The notes under the pieces are model-generated. The model was not told the origin of the DNA. It ran no database searches and worked only from the letters and a program-made list of their open reading frames with translations. Positions 735 to 53,155 of a stretch of 64,000 bases of DNA are shown here, one piece after another. Origin of the DNA: an uncultured Candidatus Saccharibacteria bacterium (GTDB lineage Bacteria; Patescibacteriota; UBA1384; JAMDBS01; CAYSHH01); the NCBI GenBank assembly GCA_964430945.1, contig CAYSHH010000001.1:82678-146677 (forward strand), read 5' to 3'. Each line of letters starts with the position of its first letter. Position 1 is the stretch's first letter. Both the position numbers and the translations under genes were made by a program.

Positions 735-1155
735 ATGCTCCTTAAAATCACTAATATTTTATTAAAATAATTATTTACAACACAATACTATCTCTAGTGT
801 AATAAATATTACCGATTAAACCAAAAATACATTCATTATTGTGGATAACTATTTCGTATCATTCTGTGGATAACTAGAAAACTACTTATATTTAATTATA
901 TTCTTACCTGTTATATGATCACTGTAGCAAACCCTTGACAAAGATATATATAAATGGGATCATACTATAATTTAGTAAAACATTAAAAAACAGTCACCCT
1001 CAAATAGCAGCGATAGTATGCTTCAAGCAAGTACTCAAAATGTTCTTGGAGCATACTATCTCTACTATGTATCAATTTAACAAAGTAGGGATAATCACAC
1101 AGAAGATATGCATTCTTTCTTATAACCACGTGTTTTAGGAAGGAACGCGGAATAT

Positions 1156-1175
1156 CTCTCTGTGTACACAGAGAG
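1156..1175. terminator. Perfect 20-nt palindrome CTCTCTGTGTACACAGAGAG just downstream of the dnaB stop; possible terminator or protein-binding site
   Basis: Read directly from the sequence. Lies in the 520-bp gap between dnaB and the pcrA start. Confidence 0.4.
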
Positions 1176-1253
1176 CGGTTTGAGAAAGAAGTACGGTAAA
1201 TAATTTAATGATCTGTTTGCCGATTATACTTCACTCGAGCCGCTTTTTAGTTA

Positions 1254-2654
1254 TTAAAAATCTTCCTCTGCAGTATAATTTGTATCTAAAGTCTGAAACT
1301 GGGTTCTCTCGCCACAAAAATACAACTTAACTGAACCAATAGGTCCATTTCTATGCTTTCGGATCAAAACTTCTGCGATATTCTTATCTTCTGTTTCTGG
1401 ATCATAATATTCATCTCTATATATAAACATTACAACATCGGCATCTTGCTCAATTGACCCAGATTCACGAAGATCAGACAGTTGGGGTCGTTTATCAGGC
1501 CTGTGTTCAACTGCACGCGAGAGCTGACTTAAAGCGATAACTGGAACATTTATCTCTCTGGCCAAAGCTTTAAGCCCTCGCGAAATTTCAGAAATCTCTT
1601 GTACCCTATTTACATCACCAGATGTTTTCGATCCTTGCATAAGCTGCAAATAATCAATAATAATTAGTCTTACATCATTTTCCATTTGTAATCTTCGAGC
1701 TTTCGCCCTTATTTCCATAACATTCGAAAAGGGTTGATCATCAATAAAAATTGGTGCTTCTGAAAGAACACCCATGGCATATCCTATCTTGGGAAAATCA
1801 TCTTCTGAAAGTTTTCCGGTTCTAAGCTTCCAAGCATCAATACCAGCTTGAGCACATATCATCCTATCAGCAAGCTGTTCTTTTGATTGCTCCAAAGAAA
1901 AAACCGCAACACCTTTCTTCTCTTTGATCGCAACATGTTCTGCAATATTAAGTGCTAATGAAGTCTTACCCATCGATGGTCTGGCAGCAAGAATTATTAA
2001 ATCCGATGATTGCAATCCTGCTAAAAGATTATCAAGATGTTTAAATCCAGTAGGAAGTCCTTTTACTTTTCCATTGTCATTATGAAGCTCATCCATTCTT
2101 TCAAAAGACTCTGCTAAAATATCTTTTATTGGCACAAAATTCTGATTAGTAGAATTTTGTGATACCGAAAATAGGAGCTGTTCTGATTTGTCTAATATAT
2201 CACTTATTTCATTCTTTTCAGTGAAAGCCAAAGAAGAAATTTCATTGGCAGCGTCGATCAGTCTTCTTAAAGTCCCCTTAGAATGAACAATGTTTGCATA
2301 GTGCACCACATGAGCAGATGTTGGCACCATACTTACAAGATTGGTCAGATATGTCGCTCCACCAATCTCCTTAAGCTTTTTCTTTGATTCTAAATTGTCA
2401 GTCAGGGTAATTACATCAATTGCTCTTCTCTTCTCAAAAAGTTCGATCATCGCTGAATATATTATCCGATGAGAAGGTTCGTAGAAATCATCTGAAAAAA
2501 GTTTATCAGCAATTTTAATAAGACATTTAGAATCAAGAAGTATCGAACCAAGCACTGATTGTTCGGCTTCAACATTCTGCGGTGGTGCAAAAATATTATT
2601 GGTTCTATCCAATATGTCAGACTTCTTACTTTTTTGATAATTTATTTTGGTCAT
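1254..2654 (-). CDS. dnaB: Replicative DNA helicase DnaB
   Basis: 466 aa. DnaB N-terminal domain (NVEAEQSVLGSILLD), Walker A ARPSMGKTSLALNIA, RecA-like C-terminal domain (IIDYLQLM). Confidence 0.95.
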   Translation of the reverse strand: MTKINYQKSKKSDILDRTNNIFAPPQNVEAEQSVLGSILLDSKCLIKIADKLFSDDFYEPSHRIIYSAMIELFEKRRAIDVITLTDNLESKKKLKEIGGATYLTNLVSMVPTSAHVVHYANIVHSKGTLRRLIDAANEISSLAFTEKNEISDILDKSEQLLFSVSQNSTNQNFVPIKDILAESFERMDELHNDNGKVKGLPTGFKHLDNLLAGLQSSDLIILAARPSMGKTSLALNIAEHVAIKEKKGVAVFSLEQSKEQLADRMICAQAGIDAWKLRTGKLSEDDFPKIGYAMGVLSEAPIFIDDQPFSNVMEIRAKARRLQMENDVRLIIIDYLQLMQGSKTSGDVNRVQEISEISRGLKALAREINVPVIALSQLSRAVEHRPDKRPQLSDLRESGSIEQDADVVMFIYRDEYYDPETEDKNIAEVLIRKHRNGPIGSVKLYFCGERTQFQTLDTNYTAEEDF

Positions 2655-2786
2655 ATTTTTTTATATCTATACTTAAATTAATCGTTGATATACTCATCAT
2701 AAAAAAAACTGTCATCTTTGACAATTCTTCCTGTCAAAAAATATTGTGAGGATAGACAGAGGAAAAGAAGTGGATAGATCTAATCT

Positions 2787-4349
2787 CTATTCACCAAATA
2801 CATCCATCGCCTCTGACGCCAATTCATTTTCTTCACTCTTGTTGTCTTTACTACTACTCATCTGAGATATCTTCTGAACCAAATTAGAATCAACTACAAA
2901 CTTAAGCTGGCATTTATTATTGGTATATTTTTCAATACACGCACATATTTCTTGATAAACCAACTTATTCTCTAATTTATCTTTGTATAACTTAAATTCA
3001 ACCCCAATAACCAGTTTGTCATCTTCTACTTTGAGAGGTGCTGAATTCTTAAGAATAATTTTGAGTGAATGATTTTTCGCCATCTTACCAACTATATTTC
3101 TCCAATCATTCTTAATCTTCTTAATATCAATTTTTACATTTTTAGTCTCACTCTGAAGTTCTTTTTTGTCTACCAAATCAATCTTCTTTTCTATAACAAC
3201 TTTTTTCTCTACAGTTTTTTTATTCTCCTTAGATTCAACATTTTTTACATCTATTGGCACAACGATATTTTCCTTCTCGCCAATTAGATTAAAAACTGCT
3301 ATCTCGAGTGGCAAATAGCTAAGACTAGTATTTTTTAAATCCTGGTTTACTTTGATAAATGTTTCAATATATTTTACAATCATCTGGCTATTTATACGCT
3401 CAACGATTGATAAGATTTTTTTCTTTTCTTCATCTGTAGTATGATTTAAAACTTCGATATAATCATATTTTATTAATAATATTTTTCTCAAGTACTCTAC
3501 CAATTCAATTGCAAACTGTTCTAGATCAGCCCCTCCGTCATAAAGTCGATGGATCAATCCAATAATTTTTTTTACATCCTTATTTAATAAATAATCAATA
3601 AACTTATATATTGACTCCTGAGAAGCTAGACCCAAAATATCTCTAGTCGCTATCTCATCAATCTTTTCTGAAACATTTGATACTTGATCAAGAAGGGATA
3701 TTGCATCTCTCATACCACCCCTAGACACATTGGCAATTATCCTTATTGATTCCTTGTCAATATTAATTCCTTCTTTTTTTGCAATCTCAGAAAGTCTATT
3801 CGCTATATTTAAGACACTATGAAGATAGAAATCGAATTGCTGAGTTCTAGAAATAATTGTATCAGGAACCTTATGAAGCTCTGTTGTTGCCAATATAAAA
3901 ACAACATGCTTCGGTGGCTCCTCCAAAGTCTTTAATAGTGCATTAAATGCCTCTCTAGTAAGCATATGTACTTCATCAATAATAAACACTTTATATCGTT
4001 TACCGGATGCTGCAAAACGCACCTTGTCACGTAGTGCTCTTATTTCGTCTATACCTCTATTGGATGCTGCATCTATTTCGATGATATCCATCGCAGTCCC
4101 TTCATTGATTTCTCTACAGGATTGACATTTATTACATGGTTCAAAACCATTATTCTTTCGCTCAACACAGTTAAGTGATTTTGCCAAAAGCCTTGCCATT
4201 GTAGTTTTTCCTGTTCCTCGAGGACCTGAAAAAAGATATGCATGAGCAATTTTATTGGTAGATATAGCACTCGTAATTACCTTAACTACATGTGTCTGTC
4301 CAACGACCTCAGAAAACTTTTGTGATCGATATTTTGTATATAGATTCAT
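2787..4349 (-). CDS. dnaX: DNA polymerase III subunit gamma/tau
   Basis: 520 aa. AAA+ Walker A GPRGTGKTT, zinc module CNKCQSCREI, clamp-loader sensor motifs. Confidence 0.93.
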   Translation of the reverse strand: MNLYTKYRSQKFSEVVGQTHVVKVITSAISTNKIAHAYLFSGPRGTGKTTMARLLAKSLNCVERKNNGFEPCNKCQSCREINEGTAMDIIEIDAASNRGIDEIRALRDKVRFAASGKRYKVFIIDEVHMLTREAFNALLKTLEEPPKHVVFILATTELHKVPDTIISRTQQFDFYLHSVLNIANRLSEIAKKEGINIDKESIRIIANVSRGGMRDAISLLDQVSNVSEKIDEIATRDILGLASQESIYKFIDYLLNKDVKKIIGLIHRLYDGGADLEQFAIELVEYLRKILLIKYDYIEVLNHTTDEEKKKILSIVERINSQMIVKYIETFIKVNQDLKNTSLSYLPLEIAVFNLIGEKENIVVPIDVKNVESKENKKTVEKKVVIEKKIDLVDKKELQSETKNVKIDIKKIKNDWRNIVGKMAKNHSLKIILKNSAPLKVEDDKLVIGVEFKLYKDKLENKLVYQEICACIEKYTNNKCQLKFVVDSNLVQKISQMSSSKDNKSEENELASEAMDVFGE

Positions 4350-4498
4350 AATCGCTCATTCCAAACGCTAATTATATTGACTCATTATTCCCACAATTTC
4401 ATAACTCATAAAAATAACACCGCACATAAGTGTTAATGTTTATACTATTTAAAAATTTATATTATCTGCGATAAATAATCAATGCTAAATTATCTCAA

Positions 4499-4918
4499 CT
4501 ACTGTGCAGATTGTTCTATTTTTTTCCTATTTTCAGCGATTACATTCTCAATTTTTTCTACAACTTCCTTTGGCATAACTTCTGATTTAACGATATAATC
4601 ACTTGCTCCATCTGCAATACCTTTTTGTTTATGGTTTTCCTGAGACAAAGATGTAAGTATGATTACCGGAATATTCTTCGTTTCTGGAGTTGATTTGATG
4701 ATATTTAAAACATCAAAACCGTTCACTTTTGGCATCATTACATCAAGAAGCATTACATGAGGCAAACTTTCTACAGCCTTAGAAAGTGCAACTTCACCAT
4801 TAGGAGCCGTTATTACATCATATCCAGAAGCCTCAAGCCTCTCCTTGTACATATCCAAAAGTGTCTTGTCATCGTCTACTACAAGTACTCTAGTTTTGGG
4901 AGAATTGTCATCATTCAT
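4499..4918 (-). CDS. Single-domain response regulator (CheY-like receiver only)
   Basis: The receiver domain begins at MNDDNSPKTRVLVVDDD (start set to ATG 4918 to remove overlap with the upstream kinase). Conserved acidic pocket, LLDVMMP phospho-acceptor region, conserved T and K. No output domain. Confidence 0.8.
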   Translation of the reverse strand: MNDDNSPKTRVLVVDDDKTLLDMYKERLEASGYDVITAPNGEVALSKAVESLPHVMLLDVMMPKVNGFDVLNIIKSTPETKNIPVIILTSLSQENHKQKGIADGASDYIVKSEVMPKEVVEKIENVIAENRKKIEQSAQ

Positions 4919-45627: not shown

Positions 45628-48600
45628 TTAATTTAATTCTTTTTTTATTTCTTCAATTATTTGATCTCTATTATAATTGTTATTTATCCAATTTGAATAT
45701 TTAATTCGTAAAAACTTCCAACCTGCTGATTCAAGAACCATTTGTCTTTTTATATCGGAATCAATATATTCCATATTTTCTTCATCAGAAAAATGACAAG
45801 GTCCATCACATTCAATTGCAAGCTTTGTATTATTCTCTTTATTTTGAATTACAAAATCAATATAATAACCACAAGTTGGTACCTGATTATAAATTAAATA
45901 TTTCTTACTTTGTAGTTTATTATTAGCTAAATCATAAAATTCTTTTTCGAAGTTTGAATCAAAACTACGAAGTTCCTTTTTTGTGCTTTCAACTACTCCG
46001 TTTGTTTCAATATAGCATAAGAATTTATCAAGCCATATTTTTTCTGGCCATTCCCTATAATCTAAGCTAGTAAAACAATGTACTTGTAGTCTAGCTCGAG
46101 AAAAAGCAACATTTATTCTACCCCTGACTATTTCTGGACGTATGTCTCCACCTTCACCAGTTAAAGCTACATATTGCATTTTTTGAGATGGATCATGTAT
46201 AACTAACGAAAAAATTACTATATCTCTTTCTTCTCCTTGTATACCATCAATAATACCAATTTTAATATTATGGTCTATTCCAAATGTGTTCTCAATTTTT
46301 TTTCTTATTAAATCTGCTTGATCATTAAAAAAAGATAGTATTGCTATCGATTTATCTTTGTATATAGGATCTTTTTTAATATCTTTAATAAACTTAATAA
46401 TTTCATTAGCCTCATTTGAATTCACACTTGGTGAAATATTTTCCTTATCTTCTGTATCATATTTAACTAAATGATTTACTAATACACGATTAGTATCCTT
46501 GTATGTTAGATATGAATTATTAACAACTTTCAGACTATTATCATAAAAATTTTCATTACAAAAACCTATAATTTCAACAGGTGATCGATAATGTTCTTCT
46601 AAAAATTTTGATTTAATACCTCTGAGTATGCCAATATCTAGTATCGATTTAATATTTTCATATCTTCCCATTATTCTGTAATCTTCATCGATATCAAATC
46701 TTAATGCCAAATCTTCTAAAATAGATTTCTTTTTAAACAGTACTGTATCATCCCTCATTTGTTTAGGATCGCCAACGATTATTGCTTTTTCTGCCCGATA
46801 CATTGTTGGAAGTGCATATGCAATATTACATTGTGATGACTCGTCTAATATTACATAATCAAATAAGTTTTGTTCTAAGGGTAGAACTCTGCTTGCATCC
46901 TCTAAATTCATTATCCATATAGGAACAATATTTGATACTGCACTAAAAATAGATAAATCATTTCTTAATCTTTCGAAGGTCTTAAAAGCTTTTTTAGATT
47001 TCTTTAAACCTTTTGCAAAACTAATTATTTTTCCTCGAATAGTGGCTTTCAAATCTTTATAAAGAGAGACTTTGTATTTTATCTGATTACGGAGATATTG
47101 TCCTACGATTTTTTGTCTATTCTTTTCAAAATCATTTATTTCATTTGATATATTTGAATAATCAATAAAATCAATCTCGATTATTTGTTCTGTGATTTTA
47201 TTAAATTCAAAAAAATCCGATAATTCTTTTTTTTGATTTTGTGAAGATAAAATTATTTTAATTATTCTTTTTAACTCATCTAGGGTAGTATTAATAGATT
47301 CTAAAAACTCATTTATTTGTTCCCGAGTATTTTCTATTTGCAATCTTTGTTCCTGAAATACACAATATCTTTGTACTGATTCAAAAAATTTTACTTTTGT
47401 TCCGAGTGACTTAGTTTTATCAGCAAGACATTTTTTCAAAATGCTCGTCATTTCTTTAGGCATCTTTTCTATGTTGTTCCGGTGAGCTTTTTGAAGTTGT
47501 ATTTTTTTAATTATTGATTTAATCAAATTTTGATTATCGTAATCAAACTGAATCATCTCATCAATCATTTCTTCCACATCTGCTGATAAATTTTTCTCCC
47601 AATACATTGCCAAAACTGTTGAGAAGAATTCTGAGAATTTATCAAATTCCTTTTTGTAAGTATTCTCGTAATCCTTCCTTCTTTTTTCTAAGTATGAGAT
47701 TTTGTTTATTTTTTCCTGAAGATTTTTAACAGTTTCCAAATTAAGCTTTTCTTCTAATTTTCTATAGTTTTCTAAATAAAAATATTCTTCCGGATATTTT
47801 TTAATTTTTTCTTTTAAATGAAAAATGGTTTCTTGTTGTTTAATACCTTTGTTAAAAAGTAATGACTTTTCTACAATTTCTTTAATTTGTTTTTGTATAT
47901 CTTGTTCATCAATATTGTGTCGGGATAAGAAACTATCTAATTTTAATCGTTCTAAAGAATTAGAAAAACTATCATAAATTTGTTTTTCTGTTATGTCGCT
48001 AGTCATATAACCAAATAAATGATCAATTCCCAAATCATTCATTTTGTCTTTTACCACTCTCAACGCTTGCTGTTTTTGACTAACAAATAATATTCTTTTT
48101 CCTTTTGCAACTAAGTGGCAAAGTAAATTTGATATTGTCTGGCTTTTGCCAGTTCCTGGAGGACCTTCAATAATAAATGCTTTGTTTTGCAAAAATTGTA
48201 TTACTTTTAGTTGACTACGATTATATTTAAAAGGATAAAATATATTTCCTTGTTTAATAGATTCGTTATCGACTAGATTGAGTTCATTATCGCTTTCCTG
48301 GGACCATACTCCAATACTAGATTTAGCAAGTTCTTCATTTTTCTTTTCAGATAATATTTCTAGATCTTTAGTAAGAAAATAATTACTTTTAGGCGCTAAA
48401 CTTAATGATATTATTGAAAAATCGCAATTGTTCTGAGCAAAATTTATCTTAGTTAATCTTAATTTATTTACTAAAATTTCACCTAGTTCTTTTAGAATTT
48501 TAATATTTCCCGGTAGATTTAACTTGGTATCTTGGTCAAATTTACCAAAATCTTTTAACAAGTCATAATAAAAATCTTCATTTTCTAGAATATTCTCAAA

Positions 48601-49155
48601 CATGCTTAAATCATAATATATCTTATCGTCTGTGATTTTTAGAGAATATCCTCCTCTGATTTTTTTTATTGAAACCTTAATATAAAAAAGAAAACTCGAA
48701 TGTGCTTCTTGGTTCAAAAACGTACCGTCTTTTTCTATTCTTTTTCCACCTCTTAATTTAGCTTTCTGAGATAATTGGTGATCAATATTAAAACTAAATT
48801 CACCGAATCTTACTATAATATCTTTAGTAAATTCCTGGTTTTTTTGTGCAGATATTAAATTCTCGATGTTTAAAGCAATATCCTTTTCAAATTCATAGTC
48901 TTTCTGGTTTTCTTCGGTTACTGTTTTAGGGGTATACTTGTTTAAAACTTCAAGTTTGATATTTACTTTATTATTGTCTGCATTAAAAGCTAAAACATCA
49001 TCAATTTTAAGATATTTTTCATTTAATGAAATATATTCTTTTGGCCTGAGAGATGCATTGCATATCCTAAGATATCCCAAACAATATTTAATATAATTTG
49101 ATAGAAATTTTTTTTGTTCATTGTCGGAAGATTCTGATTGATTATTATTTATCAT
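45628..49155 (-). CDS. Large SF1 (Upf1/DNA2-like) helicase with N-terminal DUF4011-like region and C-terminal Vsr/DUF559-like endonuclease domain
   Basis: 1175 aa. Walker A IIEGPPGTGKSQTI, motif II YVILDESSQ, GDPKQM, motif VI VAFSRAR. C-terminal DUF559-like LAIECDGPCHF...WKFLRI. Confidence 0.8.
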   Translation of the reverse strand: MINNNQSESSDNEQKKFLSNYIKYCLGYLRICNASLRPKEYISLNEKYLKIDDVLAFNADNNKVNIKLEVLNKYTPKTVTEENQKDYEFEKDIALNIENLISAQKNQEFTKDIIVRFGEFSFNIDHQLSQKAKLRGGKRIEKDGTFLNQEAHSSFLFYIKVSIKKIRGGYSLKITDDKIYYDLSMFENILENEDFYYDLLKDFGKFDQDTKLNLPGNIKILKELGEILVNKLRLTKINFAQNNCDFSIISLSLAPKSNYFLTKDLEILSEKKNEELAKSSIGVWSQESDNELNLVDNESIKQGNIFYPFKYNRSQLKVIQFLQNKAFIIEGPPGTGKSQTISNLLCHLVAKGKRILFVSQKQQALRVVKDKMNDLGIDHLFGYMTSDITEKQIYDSFSNSLERLKLDSFLSRHNIDEQDIQKQIKEIVEKSLLFNKGIKQQETIFHLKEKIKKYPEEYFYLENYRKLEEKLNLETVKNLQEKINKISYLEKRRKDYENTYKKEFDKFSEFFSTVLAMYWEKNLSADVEEMIDEMIQFDYDNQNLIKSIIKKIQLQKAHRNNIEKMPKEMTSILKKCLADKTKSLGTKVKFFESVQRYCVFQEQRLQIENTREQINEFLESINTTLDELKRIIKIILSSQNQKKELSDFFEFNKITEQIIEIDFIDYSNISNEINDFEKNRQKIVGQYLRNQIKYKVSLYKDLKATIRGKIISFAKGLKKSKKAFKTFERLRNDLSIFSAVSNIVPIWIMNLEDASRVLPLEQNLFDYVILDESSQCNIAYALPTMYRAEKAIIVGDPKQMRDDTVLFKKKSILEDLALRFDIDEDYRIMGRYENIKSILDIGILRGIKSKFLEEHYRSPVEIIGFCNENFYDNSLKVVNNSYLTYKDTNRVLVNHLVKYDTEDKENISPSVNSNEANEIIKFIKDIKKDPIYKDKSIAILSFFNDQADLIRKKIENTFGIDHNIKIGIIDGIQGEERDIVIFSLVIHDPSQKMQYVALTGEGGDIRPEIVRGRINVAFSRARLQVHCFTSLDYREWPEKIWLDKFLCYIETNGVVESTKKELRSFDSNFEKEFYDLANNKLQSKKYLIYNQVPTCGYYIDFVIQNKENNTKLAIECDGPCHFSDEENMEYIDSDIKRQMVLESAGWKFLRIKYSNWINNNYNRDQIIEEIKKELN

Positions 49156-49165
49156 TTAAAATCCC

Positions 49166-50086
49166 TTATTTAAATTTATTATAAATCTGTTTTATTAAAA
49201 ATAAAGCATATTCCAGGTCATCTTCATTTTTAATCGAAAATTCTGTCTGGTGTTTATGATAATATTTGTAACTATTTTTTATATATAGAAGAGTTTTCTT
49301 TGGATCTTTAAAATCTTTGGGTTGCACCCTATTTAATATTAAATTTAATTTATTTCTTTGAGATTTAAACTCAAATAAAACTCTAGAATCCATCTTGTAA
49401 CCAATGTAATATTTTTGTGGACTTTCTTCTAAATTTGGGTAAACTTCTAAAATGTTTTCTCTAATCTTATCAAAAAGTTCTTTTGATTTTTCCCAGCCTT
49501 TTTTAAAATGATCATCTATTGTATACTTTTTAACTTCTTTAGATACTTTTTGAACTATACCACTTGTCTTAGAAAGAGTTTTTATTGATTCTGAGGTTTC
49601 AGGAGATACAAGCTGATCAAATTCAATAATATTGCCAGAGTATTTGGCAACCTTCCAAAGTTCAATTGGTAAATCATTAAAATTAATAGCTTGCTTTTGA
49701 TGTTTTGTATAACTTCTTGCAACAAAAATTACTCGTGTTTGTGACCAGTCAACTTGATCTTTTTTAAGACTATCTTTCTGAGTTTCATTGTAATGTAAGA
49801 TAAAGTCAGCTTTATTATTAAGAGCCAAGCTTAAATACGCATATCCTTGATCAATAACAGATATATTTCTGTCTTTTTTGTATTCAATAATCACAAAGGA
49901 TTTTGATTCATCATCAAAAGCAAGAGTATCAATACGTAAGTTGTTGAGTGCAAATTCTGTAGCAATAAATTTGAGTCCAAAAATCTCTGAAAGATTTTTT
50001 TCAGCAAGAGTTTGAATATCTTTTTCCAAATCAAAAGAAAATTCTTTTACTAGCTCTAATTTGTTATTGACTTTCTTAAAAAGCAT
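49166..50086 (-). CDS. PD-(D/E)xK nuclease-like protein (RecB/Cas4-like core with QxxxY)
   Basis: 306 aa. D in RIDTLAFDDE, E-x-K in VIIEYKK, then IDQGYAY (QxxxY). Confidence 0.6.
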   Translation of the reverse strand: MLFKKVNNKLELVKEFSFDLEKDIQTLAEKNLSEIFGLKFIATEFALNNLRIDTLAFDDESKSFVIIEYKKDRNISVIDQGYAYLSLALNNKADFILHYNETQKDSLKKDQVDWSQTRVIFVARSYTKHQKQAINFNDLPIELWKVAKYSGNIIEFDQLVSPETSESIKTLSKTSGIVQKVSKEVKKYTIDDHFKKGWEKSKELFDKIRENILEVYPNLEESPQKYYIGYKMDSRVLFEFKSQRNKLNLILNRVQPKDFKDPKKTLLYIKNSYKYYHKHQTEFSIKNEDDLEYALFLIKQIYNKFK

Positions 50087-50145
50087 ACTTAAATTATACT
50101 TCCAAACAGGTTAGAACACAACCTTTTAATAAAAAGTAAACGTAT

Positions 50146-51255
50146 TTAATTTAATTTGTCGGCAGCAGATTTAATCTTTGAAATTAGTTTTTGAATATTT
50201 AAATCATCAAATAATTCAAAAGCAGTAATCTTTCCATCTTCATAACTACTAAGAGATCTGAAATATTCTACATACTTTTTGATAGGTGAACATTCCTCAT
50301 TCATTTTACAAAGTTTGTCATATTGTTCGTTTGGATAGCTGAAAGTTAATCTTGGACTGTTGTCTTTGATTTCAAAGAATAGATAAGAAAAATTGTTATA
50401 CCCACCAGGTTTTTTGATATCTTCTGGAAATGGTGTCATAAGAGAAAATCCATTCTTTCTCCATGTAACTTTTACATTTTTGGAATTCTGAAAGTTATCA
50501 AGTAACTTAATGGCTAACTGCTTTGCATTACCACTAAGCTTATTTACAAAATCATTTTGCGCGATTGGAGTTCTATCATAATCATCTGACTTTGTAATAT
50601 TCTTGGTAACACTTTTCCTGTATGGGTTGGCAAGACGAGGAACAAGAAACTTTTGATTTTTATCGCCAATAAGCTCCATTTGGGCAATATAAAAGTCAAT
50701 TTCTTGACCAGTCCTATCATTAAGATAGTTAGCAATATTTTTAAGCTCATCATTTACTTTATCTACTACTATCAAGATACTAAAGCTTCCTAATCTTAAG
50801 CGTTTTTCAATTCCTTCCTTAAAATCACTTTCTGAAAAACTATCGCCAAATTTTTCCTTAAGATAATCGGATAAATTACCTTGATATTGGATTTTCTCTT
50901 GTAAAAGATATTGTTTGAAATAATTTTCAATATCTTCGTAATTTTTATTCCATAAATACGAAGCATATCCTAGAGCTTGTCCGACAACAGTTCTTTTCAC
51001 TTCTGGGTTTTGATCAAGTTTTGTCTCAATAATTACAATCTGACCTTGCGGACTTACTGCCAATAGATCAAGATAGCCATTTTCTAAAGATACTTCTTTA
51101 CCTATAGTTACGAATTGATCAGAATAACCCATATCTTCAAAAGGTAAAGTATTTACATCTTTTGATAATATATCTTGAAGTTCAGATTCATTTTTATATG
51201 CCTGTTTTTGAGTTTTAGTCCAACCATCTTTAGTTTTATGTAATATGTGTGTCAT
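50146..51255 (-). CDS. PD-(D/E)xK nuclease-like protein, paralog of the downstream gene
   Basis: 369 aa. YLDLLAVSPQGQIVIIETKLDQN (D...ExK), then GQALGY (QxxxY). Confidence 0.6.
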   Translation of the reverse strand: MTHILHKTKDGWTKTQKQAYKNESELQDILSKDVNTLPFEDMGYSDQFVTIGKEVSLENGYLDLLAVSPQGQIVIIETKLDQNPEVKRTVVGQALGYASYLWNKNYEDIENYFKQYLLQEKIQYQGNLSDYLKEKFGDSFSESDFKEGIEKRLRLGSFSILIVVDKVNDELKNIANYLNDRTGQEIDFYIAQMELIGDKNQKFLVPRLANPYRKSVTKNITKSDDYDRTPIAQNDFVNKLSGNAKQLAIKLLDNFQNSKNVKVTWRKNGFSLMTPFPEDIKKPGGYNNFSYLFFEIKDNSPRLTFSYPNEQYDKLCKMNEECSPIKKYVEYFRSLSSYEDGKITAFELFDDLNIQKLISKIKSAADKLN

Positions 51256-51344
51256 ATCTTCCTTTCTATATAACTAAAAAACCACAGTTAAAAACTGTGA
51301 TTAAATAATAAAATATAAATTGTAATTTAATATTACTTTCATAT

Positions 51345-51487
51345 TGTCGCAGTGGATTTCTGTGAACGAAAGAGTACAAAAAGGGTCTCCCGTTCACCGA
51401 CAGCTCTTACGAAACTGCCTACTACCTTTCGGTAGTAACCACTGCGACATGATAGTGAGACGGAAGACCGTCTTTATGTCGCAGTGG
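51345..51487 (+). ncRNA. GC-rich structured element. The 11-mer TGTCGCAGTGG occurs at 51345-51355 and 51477-51487, with an inverted copy CCACTGCGACA at 51439-51449 and internal hairpins. Candidate ncRNA or recombination/regulatory site.
   Basis: Read from the sequence. Nested stems GTGAACG/CGTTCAC and CTACC/GGTAG, plus a terminator-like GAGACGG-aaga-CCGTCTTTAT. Local GC is well above the surroundings. Confidence 0.45.
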
Positions 51488-51661
51488 AATATTTATTAAA
51501 ACCATATCTTACATATAAATATATAAGGGTTAGGTTTGTTTCTAACTAATTGTTACTAACAGGTATATAATAGCATAAATAAACATTAAATAAAAGTATT
51601 TCTACCTGTTAGTTATCTACATCTAGACATATATCACATTATCCGGCATCCTTACCTTGCT

Positions 51662-52954
51662 ATGCAGACAATTCTATCCAAAGGAAAGAAAATTAATTTC
51701 TGCTTATATGCTCGCAAATCATCAGAACGTGATGAATTGCAAGCTTTGTCAATTGAGACTCAGGTAAACGAAATGCTTGCTATTGCTAAAAGAGATGATT
51801 TGAAAATCATAGATATTCGTAAGGAATCTCATTCAGCAAAAGACAGTGGTGAGCGTCCAGTTTTCAGATCAATAATAAACGATATAAAAGCTGATAAGAT
51901 TCAGGGAATTCTCACCTGGGCACCAGACAGATTAAGCCGAAATGCTGGTGATTTAGGGTTATTAGTCGATCTTATGGATCAAAAGTATTTGCTTGAAATT
52001 AGAACGTATAATCAAATATTTACCAATTCACCGAATGATAAATTTCTGCTGATGATACTAGGATCACAGGCAAAATTAGAGAATGACAATAAGGCGATAA
52101 ATGTTAAAAGAGGATTAAAAGCAAAGTGCGAGATGGGATTTAGACCAGGCATGTCACCATTAGGGTTTATCAATGACAAATATGCTAAAAAAGGTGAAAA
52201 AAAAGTTCGTTTAGATCCAAAACGTGCTCCTATTATGAAGGAGATGTTTAAAAAAGTTGCTTCAGGAGAGAGTGGTCGAGCAGTATTTCGGTGGCTTAAT
52301 CAAACGGGCTTTACTACCAGATCAGGTAAAAAAGTAACTTTAAGCTTAGTATATGATATGCTTCATAATTCATATTATTGTGGTAAATTTGAATATCCAA
52401 TAGGAAGTGGCAATTGGTATAAAGTTGGACATGAAACTTTAATCTCAGAAGAAACTTTTAATCAAGTTCAACAAGTATTAGAAGTCGCTCCCAAATCTAG
52501 ACCAGGAACCAAAGAATTTGATTTTACTAGACTTATTAAATGCGGTTCTTGCGGTTCTGGTGTGGGAGCTGAAGAAAAATTTAAAACTCTCAAGAACGGA
52601 AGTAAAAACAGATATGTATATTATCATTGTACTAAAGGCGCTGATCGAAACTGTAAAGAATTATACATCAGAGAAGAAGATTTAGTTGAGCAATTGATTC
52701 AATTGATAGATAAACTTGATATTAACCAATTTGATGCTCAGAGGAAACTTCGAAATGAAATTGCTAGATATGAAAGATTTACTAAAGGAGTATTAGGTGA
52801 GAAAACAAATCATATCGGAAAAACAAACAAGGTAAAAATACACAATTATGCAAAATATGTCTTAAAGAATGGAACCAGAGAAGAAAAAAGAGAATTGTTA
52901 AGTTGTCTCAAAACAAAATTATACCTTAAAGACCAGAAAATATATATGCAATAG
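51662..52954 (+). CDS. Large serine recombinase (paralog of 29249-30604)
   Basis: 430 aa. FCLYARKSSERDELQALSIETQ, DRLSRNAGDLG, zinc ribbon CGSCGSG...YYHC. Collinear with the other recombinase, roughly half the residues identical. Confidence 0.9.
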   Translation: MQTILSKGKKINFCLYARKSSERDELQALSIETQVNEMLAIAKRDDLKIIDIRKESHSAKDSGERPVFRSIINDIKADKIQGILTWAPDRLSRNAGDLGLLVDLMDQKYLLEIRTYNQIFTNSPNDKFLLMILGSQAKLENDNKAINVKRGLKAKCEMGFRPGMSPLGFINDKYAKKGEKKVRLDPKRAPIMKEMFKKVASGESGRAVFRWLNQTGFTTRSGKKVTLSLVYDMLHNSYYCGKFEYPIGSGNWYKVGHETLISEETFNQVQQVLEVAPKSRPGTKEFDFTRLIKCGSCGSGVGAEEKFKTLKNGSKNRYVYYHCTKGADRNCKELYIREEDLVEQLIQLIDKLDINQFDAQRKLRNEIARYERFTKGVLGEKTNHIGKTNKVKIHNYAKYVLKNGTREEKRELLSCLKTKLYLKDQKIYMQ

Positions 52955-52957
52955 TTT

Positions 52958-52980
52958 GGTTCGAGTCCGATTTCTGGTCA
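52958..52980 (+). repeat. Inverted partial copy of the tRNA-Asn 3' end (GGTTCGAGTCCGA exact, 17 of 23 overall), immediately after the recombinase stop codon
   Basis: Compared by eye with the tRNA-Asn gene at 53081-53155, where the corresponding segment lies at 53092-53105 on the opposite strand. Confidence 0.5.
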
Positions 52981-53080
52981 AACAAAAAAAGCGTTTTTAA
53001 ACACTCTTTTTGATGTACATATGTTTTCTAGCTAACCTGTAATCCCTTGACAGGAAATGGTCGCCAGGAACATATGGTGT

Positions 53081-53155
53081 TGGCTCCGGAGCTCGGACTC
53101 GAACCGAGAACCCTCTCGTTAACAGCGAGATGCTCTGCCATTGAGCTACTCCGGA
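53081..53155 (-). tRNA. tRNA-Asn (anticodon GTT)
   Basis: Manual fold: U1-A72 acceptor TCCGGAG/CTCCGGA, anticodon arm TCTCG-CTGTTAA-CGAGA, T-arm CTCGG-TTCGAGT-CCGAG, discriminator G, CCA encoded. Confidence 0.8.

Follow-up and report, generated by a model that had tools for sequence, protein, structure and literature searches.

The GC-rich repeat cluster in the window, by which we mean the whole 64-kb stretch of DNA that was analyzed, belongs to the known LOOT RNA family and is encoded on the minus strand, where it is the core of a LOOT-family RNA of ∼200 nt running from about 51545 to 51340 (Table 1). We consider it probable that this RNA and its close relatives form a LOOT subfamily of cis-acting 5' leaders of defense genes, in which a middle strand (B) pairs either with an upstream strand (A), leaving the start codon free, or with a downstream strand (C), by which the start codon is sequestered.

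The LOOT family stems from metagenomes, as part of the Weinberg/Breaker collection (Weinberg et al. 2017, PMC5737381), and is shown in Rfam 14 (PMC7779021); Rfam types it as 'Gene; sRNA' with function unknown, and it has about 43 bp in six helices (Rivas 2020). The searchable literature gives no function for LOOT, and literature searches with the repeated 11-mer returned nothing relevant. The Rfam model (RF03000) matches the minus strand at 51536..51399 with 59.4 bits against a gathering threshold of 46.4, covering model positions 1 to 121 of 121, and this is the sole non-tRNA Rfam match in the whole window at gathering threshold; an Rfam E-value search found no match of the element to known aptamer or riboswitch families. 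The minus-strand fold has −90.8 kcal/mol (z −7.8), compared with −81.7 kcal/mol (z −6.5) for the plus strand. All of the LOOT helices are present, namely P1 with its internal loop, the long P2 with an apical hairpin, P3, and P4, and the Rfam alignment identifies the third and second repeat copies as the two strands (A and B) of helix P2. The first copy (C) is 3' of the Rfam model, past a further hairpin (P5) and 2 nt ahead of an AUG.

The preliminary description had reported an 11-mer in direct, inverted, and direct orientation, with 132 nt between the starts of the direct copies, and a one-mismatch search of both strands of the window bears this out: TGTCGCAGTGG is at 51345-51355 and 51477-51487 on the plus strand and is inverted at 51439-51449, reading CCACTGCGACA. 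These three are the only matches with at most one mismatch in the 64 kb, with 0.18 expected from shuffling and three copies reached in 0 of 100 shuffles, and within this window the repeat is not part of a scattered family, the outcome that had been named as counting against an RNA. Copy 2 can pair with either of the others, as was claimed, being 100% complementary to both (12 nt with copy 3 and 11 nt with copy 1). The elevated GC content in AT-rich surroundings is also confirmed (0.43 to 0.48 over 51350-51499, compared to 0.20 to 0.31 in the flanks), and repeat searches and folds recover every inner hairpin that was listed: GTGAACG/CGTTCAC is P5, 3' of the model, TACTACC/GGTAGTA (given as CTACC/GGTAG) is P3, and GAGACGG/CCGTCTC is the P2 apical hairpin. 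The last of these had been described as terminator-like (GAGACGG-AAGA-CCGTCTTTAT), but it is what the P2 apical hairpin looks like when read on the plus strand, and no terminator is called there by the scan. The 143-nt segment itself stands, but the element reaches on to 51536 and its relevant strand is the minus strand, both of which were missed. The proposal of a structured RNA in which the middle repeat is shared by two long-range helices that exclude each other gains support from the LOOT match and from covariation, two of the checks that had been suggested: the Rfam search identifies the element as LOOT, and both long-range helices covary across relatives.

Table 1. Features of the LOOT element in the window and variant repeat triples in its relatives
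Feature	Position or loci	Strand	Basis and remarks
−10-like box TAACAAT	51549..51555	-	13 nt upstream of P1; putative promoter
P1 hairpin, internal loop CCUAAC...UAUGG	51500..51536	-	Rfam alignment, model positions 1-38; P1 pairs covary
Strand A (copy 3), CCACUGCGACAU	51476..51487	-	5' strand of P2; covaries with B over five types
P2 apex, local hairpin GACGG-UCUU-CCGUC	51451..51475	-	Rfam alignment, fold
5' strand of long-range 10-bp helix (PK), GGUCUUCCGU	51460-51469	-	In P2 apex; PK analysis
Strand B (copy 2), AUGUCGCAGUGG	51439..51450	-	Pairs with A or C
P3 hairpin ACUACC-GAAA-GGUAGU, GNRA tetraloop	51420..51437	-	Rfam alignment, repeat search, covariation
P4 hairpin GGCAGU...GCUGUC	51399..51419	-	Rfam alignment, covariation; Rfam model ends here
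P5 hairpin GUGAACGGGAGA...UCUUUCGUUCAC	51362..51397	-	Outside Rfam model; fold, present in all relatives
3' strand of PK, ACGGGAGACC	51384-51393	-	Within P5; PK analysis
Conserved U-rich motif, CUUUUUGUAC	51374-51383	-	Within P5; in all relatives
Strand C (copy 1), CCACUGCGACA	51345..51355	-	Identical to A; preceded by A-rich linker
AUG and 13-codon ORF, MKVILNYNLYFII then stop	51301..51342	-	AUG 2 nt after C; contains AAATTACAATT
Terminator-like hairpin AAUCACAGUU-UUU-AACUGUGGUU and U run	51272..51302	-	Terminator scan, fold
369-aa gene, PDC-S11	50146..51255	-	First full gene downstream; own AAGGAAG ribosome-binding site
A/B/C triple CCCGACCAAGA / UCUUGGUCGGG / CCCGACCAAGA	L177-L179
A/B/C triple CCUACCACAGG / CCUGUGGUAGG / CCUACCACAGG	L176, L203, L204
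A/B/C triple CCCAUCCCUGA / UCAGGGAUGGG / CCCAUCCCUGA	L192
A/B/C triple CCCGCUACAGG / CCUGUAGCGGG / CCCGCUACAAG	L202

Relatives were collected by two routes, and these differ in how far they constrain the repeat. Degenerate LOOT patterns on viral contigs were the starting point and returned mostly chance matches, with about six true LOOTs, among them L132, which has the same 12-mer arms and a third copy downstream; a later degenerate LOOT pattern on viral contigs found only L001 again. A search with the pattern CCACTGCGACA-N15-45-TGTCGCAGTGG over three collections gave 1 viral, 9 genome, and 20 metagenome loci; 12 distinct sequences (type 1, the window included) are LOOT RNAs above threshold, from metagenome-assembled genomes labeled Patescibacteria, Saccharibacteria, Planctomycetia, or plain 'bacterium'. 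Each has an exact C copy 80 to 92 nt after B, and P1, P3, P4, P5, and the P2 apex vary and covary among them. The type 1 pattern demanded A and B exactly and did not contain C, and the unbiased evidence is therefore the C copy in type 1 loci together with types 2 to 5, which were reached through a repeat-independent anchor, a protein encoded divergently upstream of several LOOTs. In all, there are 17 further distinct three-copy LOOT loci with the same layout, mainly in mobile elements of Patescibacteria, and all 17 pass the LOOT threshold with 48 to 91 bits; the LOOTs of the loci found through the anchor are given as 64 to 92 bits. Using the recombinase and the 369-aa protein as anchors on viral contigs found no relatives, and a blastn comparison of the element with GenBank phages gave only weak chance matches. 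The window is AT-rich and has rpoD and dnaG, and its LOOT is closest to those of Patescibacteria. We also considered the invariance of CCACTGCGACA across phyla as the mark of a sequence-specific binding site and rejected this, as four other triples were found by way of the neighboring protein family; the invariance is largely an artifact of the search pattern. Some LOOT RNAs lack the C copy (L001, L034, and L128), and the proposed switch is thus a feature of a subfamily and not of LOOT as a whole.

Five 11-mers are found among these loci (CCACUGCGACA, CCCGACCAAGA, CCUACCACAGG, CCCAUCCCUGA, and CCCGCUACAGG), each present as A, as the complement B, and as the copy C. The conserved feature is not the sequence but the relationship, in that A equals C, both complement B, and in each locus all three change together. 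Over the five types A:B is 100% paired and B:C is 98% paired, and in either helix both partners have changed at 9 of 11 pairs, counts that were made on excerpted segments with registers chosen by the analyst and that represent five independent repeat types only. Excerpted segments were used both here and for the long-range PK helix described below because whole-RNA MAFFT alignments mis-register the variable hairpins and the variant repeats. None of 500 shuffles reaches the observed values for A:B or B:C, and slid registers pair at 29 to 47%. P1, P3, and P4 covary among 12 to 18 relatives, and P2 covaries among the five types. The three-way covariation shows that the predicted pairings of B, with A or with C, are both kept by selection. 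A blind search for 10-mer triples (X, its reverse complement, and X at these spacings) in 205 sequences totaling 1.84 Mb, on both strands, found these loci and one related group of mini-elements only.

Several other arrangements of the repeat were seen. A ∼110-nt element carries the CCACTGCGACA triple with C 47 nt after B and then an ATG, and has none of the LOOT helices and no Rfam match; it is present in L157 (7480-7800), L165, L166, L163, L170, and L156, all from one metagenome (Ga0182024), with a GC content of about 0.6. It has flanking inverted repeats of ∼30 nt and differing genomic contexts, and may be a repeated or mobile mini-version. L159 (1366-1560) has tandem head-to-tail CCACTGCGACA units facing inverted GTGGTGTCGCA units with an 11-nt period, unrelated to LOOT.

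The position of C is as regular as its sequence is variable. In 18 of 18 three-copy loci it is 0 to 5 nt upstream of an ATG (1 to 5 nt in types 2 to 5) and on the same strand as the gene, with no Shine-Dalgarno sequence between C and the ATG, and the B:C helix of type 1 reaches far enough to take in part of the AUG. The adjacent open reading frames (ORFs) usually code for DNA methyltransferases of two unrelated families, with either PF01555 or PF02384 with HSDR_N_2, followed by a ResIII helicase (type III) or HsdS (type I); among the type 1 loci there are also one methyltransferase-Mrr fusion and one membrane protein. Methyltransferases of type I, type III, and fused restriction-modification systems account for 15 loci, and PDC-S11-like genes are present in the window and in L034; the exceptions to defense cargo are membrane proteins in L150 and L001. 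The loci thus combine a structured domain 5' of a gene, mutually exclusive conserved pairings, and a consistent gene class, as in a riboswitch-like leader.

The same facts bear on the reading closest to the Rfam classification, in which LOOT is a free-standing sRNA that is terminated and acts in trans, its third repeat having no function in cis. The Rfam type is sRNA, there are canonical LOOTs without C, and in the window the intrinsic terminator is 40 nt after C and before the first real gene. However, 17 of the 18 three-copy loci have no terminator and have C directly ahead of the start codon of a following gene in the same orientation, C covaries with B, and the 64-kb window contains no other complementary target; we regard the sRNA reading as unlikely.

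The window copy is unusual in what follows C. The only terminator-scan call (51302..51280, minus strand) is the hairpin listed in Table 1, and the stop codon of the 13-codon ORF overlaps its first stem bases. The ORF contains AAATTACAATT, which is present once in the window (0.42 expected over both strands, 128 kb) and is out of frame here; in L148, L149, L155, L176, and L177, it follows the AUG as the conserved 5' end of type III mod genes. The mini-ORF sequence is likely an out-of-frame stub of a type III mod 5' end, and an earlier mod gene was probably replaced. One reading of this is that the window copy is a nonfunctional relic, a leader left behind when type III mod gave way to other defense genes, for which it also speaks that the mini-ORF is followed by a terminator and the next gene has its own ribosome-binding site. 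We consider this distinctly improbable, as all of the helices, PK, and the three repeats are intact in the window, and in viral contig L034 a canonical LOOT is followed directly by an ORF homologous to the PDC-S11 protein of 369 aa (27% identity over 209 aa, E 4e-23), such that this cargo may be native. Under our preferred reading of a cis-acting leader, the window copy may act through translation-coupled read-through of the terminator, or it may be orphaned.

The neighbors are as first described, with minus-strand genes at 45628-51255, the last of which codes for a helicase-nuclease, and a serine recombinase gene at 51662-52954 on the plus strand. The three consecutive minus-strand genes correspond to the PADLOC candidate defense families PDC-S11 (369 aa), PDC-S18 (306 aa, 343 bits), and PDC-S37, an SF1 helicase with a DUF559/MTES_1575 nuclease domain. 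In L158, an RVT_1 reverse transcriptase gene (3665-4717, plus strand) is convergent to, and directly after, the LOOT-led methyltransferase-Mrr fusion gene. Many loci also have a gene for a 66- to 73-aa HTH_17/MerR-type protein that ends 25 to 40 nt upstream of LOOT on the same strand (L176, 4711-4932; L177, 4714-4914; and also L148, L152, L155, and L171), which is the position of a restriction-modification controller protein; there is none in the window.

The RNA contains further long-range structure. A 10-nt stretch of the P2 apex pairs with another lying directly 5' of the U-rich motif that is conserved in the P5 loop (UUUUCUGU or UUUGUG), a helix that we term PK, with a mean of 9.4 of 10 pairs within a sequence compared to 7.2 between mismatched sequences; 95% of the cells are paired and 6 of the 10 pairs are compensatory, as opposed to 43 to 46% in slid registers, and in the window 10 of 10 pairs are intact. 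These strands overlap the apical hairpin and the inner part of P5, so that PK may be a pseudoknot or else one more alternative pairing. In P1 the internal loop resembles the 11-nt receptor for GAAA tetraloops; L153, L154, and L192 match its consensus CCUAAG...UAUGG exactly, with near matches in the rest, and most P3 and P4 hairpins have GAAA loops. Together, the covarying 10-bp long-range helix and the tetraloop-receptor-like motif indicate a compact predicted fold for the RNA.

This long-range helix is also the basis for a different account, in which the element is mainly a transcription attenuator, with PK and the U-rich tract (UUUUCUGU) as the terminator, the P2 apex hairpin as the anti-terminator, and A, B, and C secondary. 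The 3' strand of PK abuts the U-rich tract in 18 of 18 sequences, the helix covaries, and its overlap with the apex hairpin makes the two mutually exclusive. Even so, some 90 nt separate the two PK strands, an uncommon distance for an intrinsic terminator, the U-tract is not continuous, and the account leaves unexplained why C copies A and why C sits at the AUG. Attenuation as the main function is thus quite unlikely in our view, although it may coexist with the translational leader that we favor.

A TAACAAT or TACAAT motif is present 5 to 12 nt upstream of P1 at nearly all of the LOOT loci examined, the canonical ones included, and its position suggests that the predicted minus-strand transcript starts just before P1; a generic sigma-70 scan makes no call at the TAACAAT box in the window. 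Separately, the divergent region between the start of LOOT and the recombinase gene contains, at 51555-51613, a perfect 11-bp inverted repeat (ACTAACAGGTA / TACCTGTTAGT, 37 nt apart) around a TATATAAT box, which could be an operator or a recombinase-related site.

With each pairing forced in ViennaRNA, the B:C and A:B states differ by −0.7 ± 2.2 kcal/mol on average (B:C minus A:B, 18 sequences), and for the window the difference is 0.1 to −2.0 kcal/mol according to how much sequence is folded; these energies ignore PK and tertiary contacts, and their near equality partly follows from A being equal to C. If A:B is formed, the LOOT fold would be complete, C and the AUG would be single-stranded, and translation would be on; if B:C is formed, the start region would be held in a helix of at least 11 bp and translation would be off, the on and off assignments being by analogy. 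The balance could be set by anything that stabilizes or destabilizes the LOOT fold, with a ligand, a protein, Mg2+, temperature, and co-transcriptional timing as candidates, and PK and the U-tract could add a termination step. Extending the leader model in this way, it is possible, and we propose this more tentatively, that LOOT is a sensor RNA, riboswitch-like or protein-responsive, that gates the translation of restriction-modification and other defense operons on Patescibacteria mobile elements.

The contigs reached through the anchor protein show a conserved integrative element comprising this protein, a DUF5659 protein, a Toprim primase, an HTH_17 protein, and a large serine recombinase adjoining a tRNA, with a variable cargo slot opposite. 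The anchor family (450 to 740 aa) includes the L155 protein (1036-3198, plus strand) and 92 homologues (P0001-P0092), is transcribed divergently from the cargo slot, and is matched by nothing in Pfam, PHROG, or PADLOC; as it is also found where there is no LOOT, it is a core gene of the element and not a LOOT partner. Integron-type sites flanking the cargo were considered and discarded, as there are no further repeat copies at the cargo ends. The end of the large serine recombinase gene adjoins tRNA-Asn in the window (52955-53155) and tRNAs in L153 (2217-2287) and L203 (9200-9270), and a tRNA-like 3' fragment, GGTTCGAGTCCGATTTCTGGTCA, follows the recombinase stop in the window. This placement suggests that a tRNA is the site of integration, and no att duplicate of the tRNA end was found within the window. 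In L180-L185 LOOT is cleanly absent (about 4690-4730, minus strand), with TTAACAATT joined straight to the mod ATG, and the methyltransferase is split by a frameshift into 131 and 529 aa in 4 of these 6. The cargo slot of a LOOT-less related element, L187, has another strongly structured segment (3770-3900, minus strand) with a closing stem GCGACATCCAACTA / TAGTTGGGTGTCGC, upstream of genes for zinc-ribbon membrane proteins and with no Rfam match at gathering threshold.

A role for the repeats at the DNA level, as HTH operator half-sites or as binding or crossover sites for the serine recombinase (the latter raised in the preliminary description), has in its favor that the repeats are exact, that the recombinase gene is 125 nt away in the window, and that a small HTH_17 gene is just upstream in many relatives. 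It is scarcely credible given the rest of the data: A:B is helix P2 of an RNA family that covaries throughout and has RNA-specific motifs, G:U pairs (127 of 1,033 pairs on the sense strand) are on one strand only, and 9 of 11 positions differ between repeat types whose neighboring proteins stay similar. Furthermore, the recombinase is 3 to 6 kb and several genes away in L153, L176, L192, and L203, the window has no HTH gene, and no locus has further copies of the repeat that could serve as a second site. The repeats had likewise been compared to the a1/a2 repeats of retrons, but none of the six ORFs scanned (45.6-56.1 kb) codes for a reverse transcriptase, and the partner of the middle repeat is at a start codon and not at the end of an msd. 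Retron msr/msd loci share with these elements the inverted repeats bracketing a structured noncoding region, but the elements described here have three strands where retrons have two, their outer strand is next to a start codon, and neither the window nor the relatives have an adjacent reverse transcriptase, except for L158, where it is on the other strand.

Several known systems resemble parts of this arrangement. Relative to LOOT (RF03000) as modeled, P1 to P4, the CCUAA...AUGG internal loop, the long P2, and the GAAA-capped hairpins are held in common, but the Rfam model stops after P4, whereas here there are also P5, the long-range helix to the P2 apex, the U-rich motif, and C at a start codon, together with a steady link to restriction-modification and other defense genes; the 3' extension, the third strand, and the defense-gene link are absent from the searchable literature. 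In translational riboswitch platforms, including the pseudoknot-type SAM-II and preQ1, the aptamer domain shares a strand with the helix that hides the start, and the pairings are conserved and mutually exclusive. That logic is similar, but the sequestered element here is a copy of an internal helix strand and not a Shine-Dalgarno sequence, and there is no similarity in sequence or model. In hok/sok-type post-segregational killing loci, refolding (tac/fbi/ucb-dcb) gives one strand two alternative partners and decides the translation of the addiction gene, and restriction-modification systems are addiction modules as well. One strand with two partners is common to both, although neither an antisense RNA nor a 3' processing signal is present here, the controlled genes are not related, and the arrangement is confined to the 5' end in contrast to the long-range 5'-3' pairing of hok. 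Controller (C) proteins and their C-boxes are dedicated control elements ahead of restriction-modification operons, as LOOT is here, often with a small HTH gene just upstream; however, that HTH is of the HTH_17/MerR type and absent from the window, and the element is a covarying RNA and not a palindromic DNA operator.

Described in 2017 and found largely in metagenomes, LOOT has remained an orphan among RNA classes; the window and its relatives now give it a probable genomic role as the leader of defense operons, mostly restriction-modification systems, on integrative elements of Patescibacteria, with a testable mechanism in which a middle strand chooses between two identical partners, one of which is at a start codon. 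The timing and limiting of mobile restriction-modification expression is a long-standing question for which, to our knowledge, the answers so far have been proteins and antisense RNAs, and a switch made of structured RNA would be an answer of a new kind. The 11-nt triple varies by lineage while the scaffold is constant, an attractive compact design for engineered translational control. Should LOOT prove to be a sensor, restriction-modification control would have its first known dedicated RNA switch and this orphan class would have a function, and the three-strand module would be both portable and reprogrammable.
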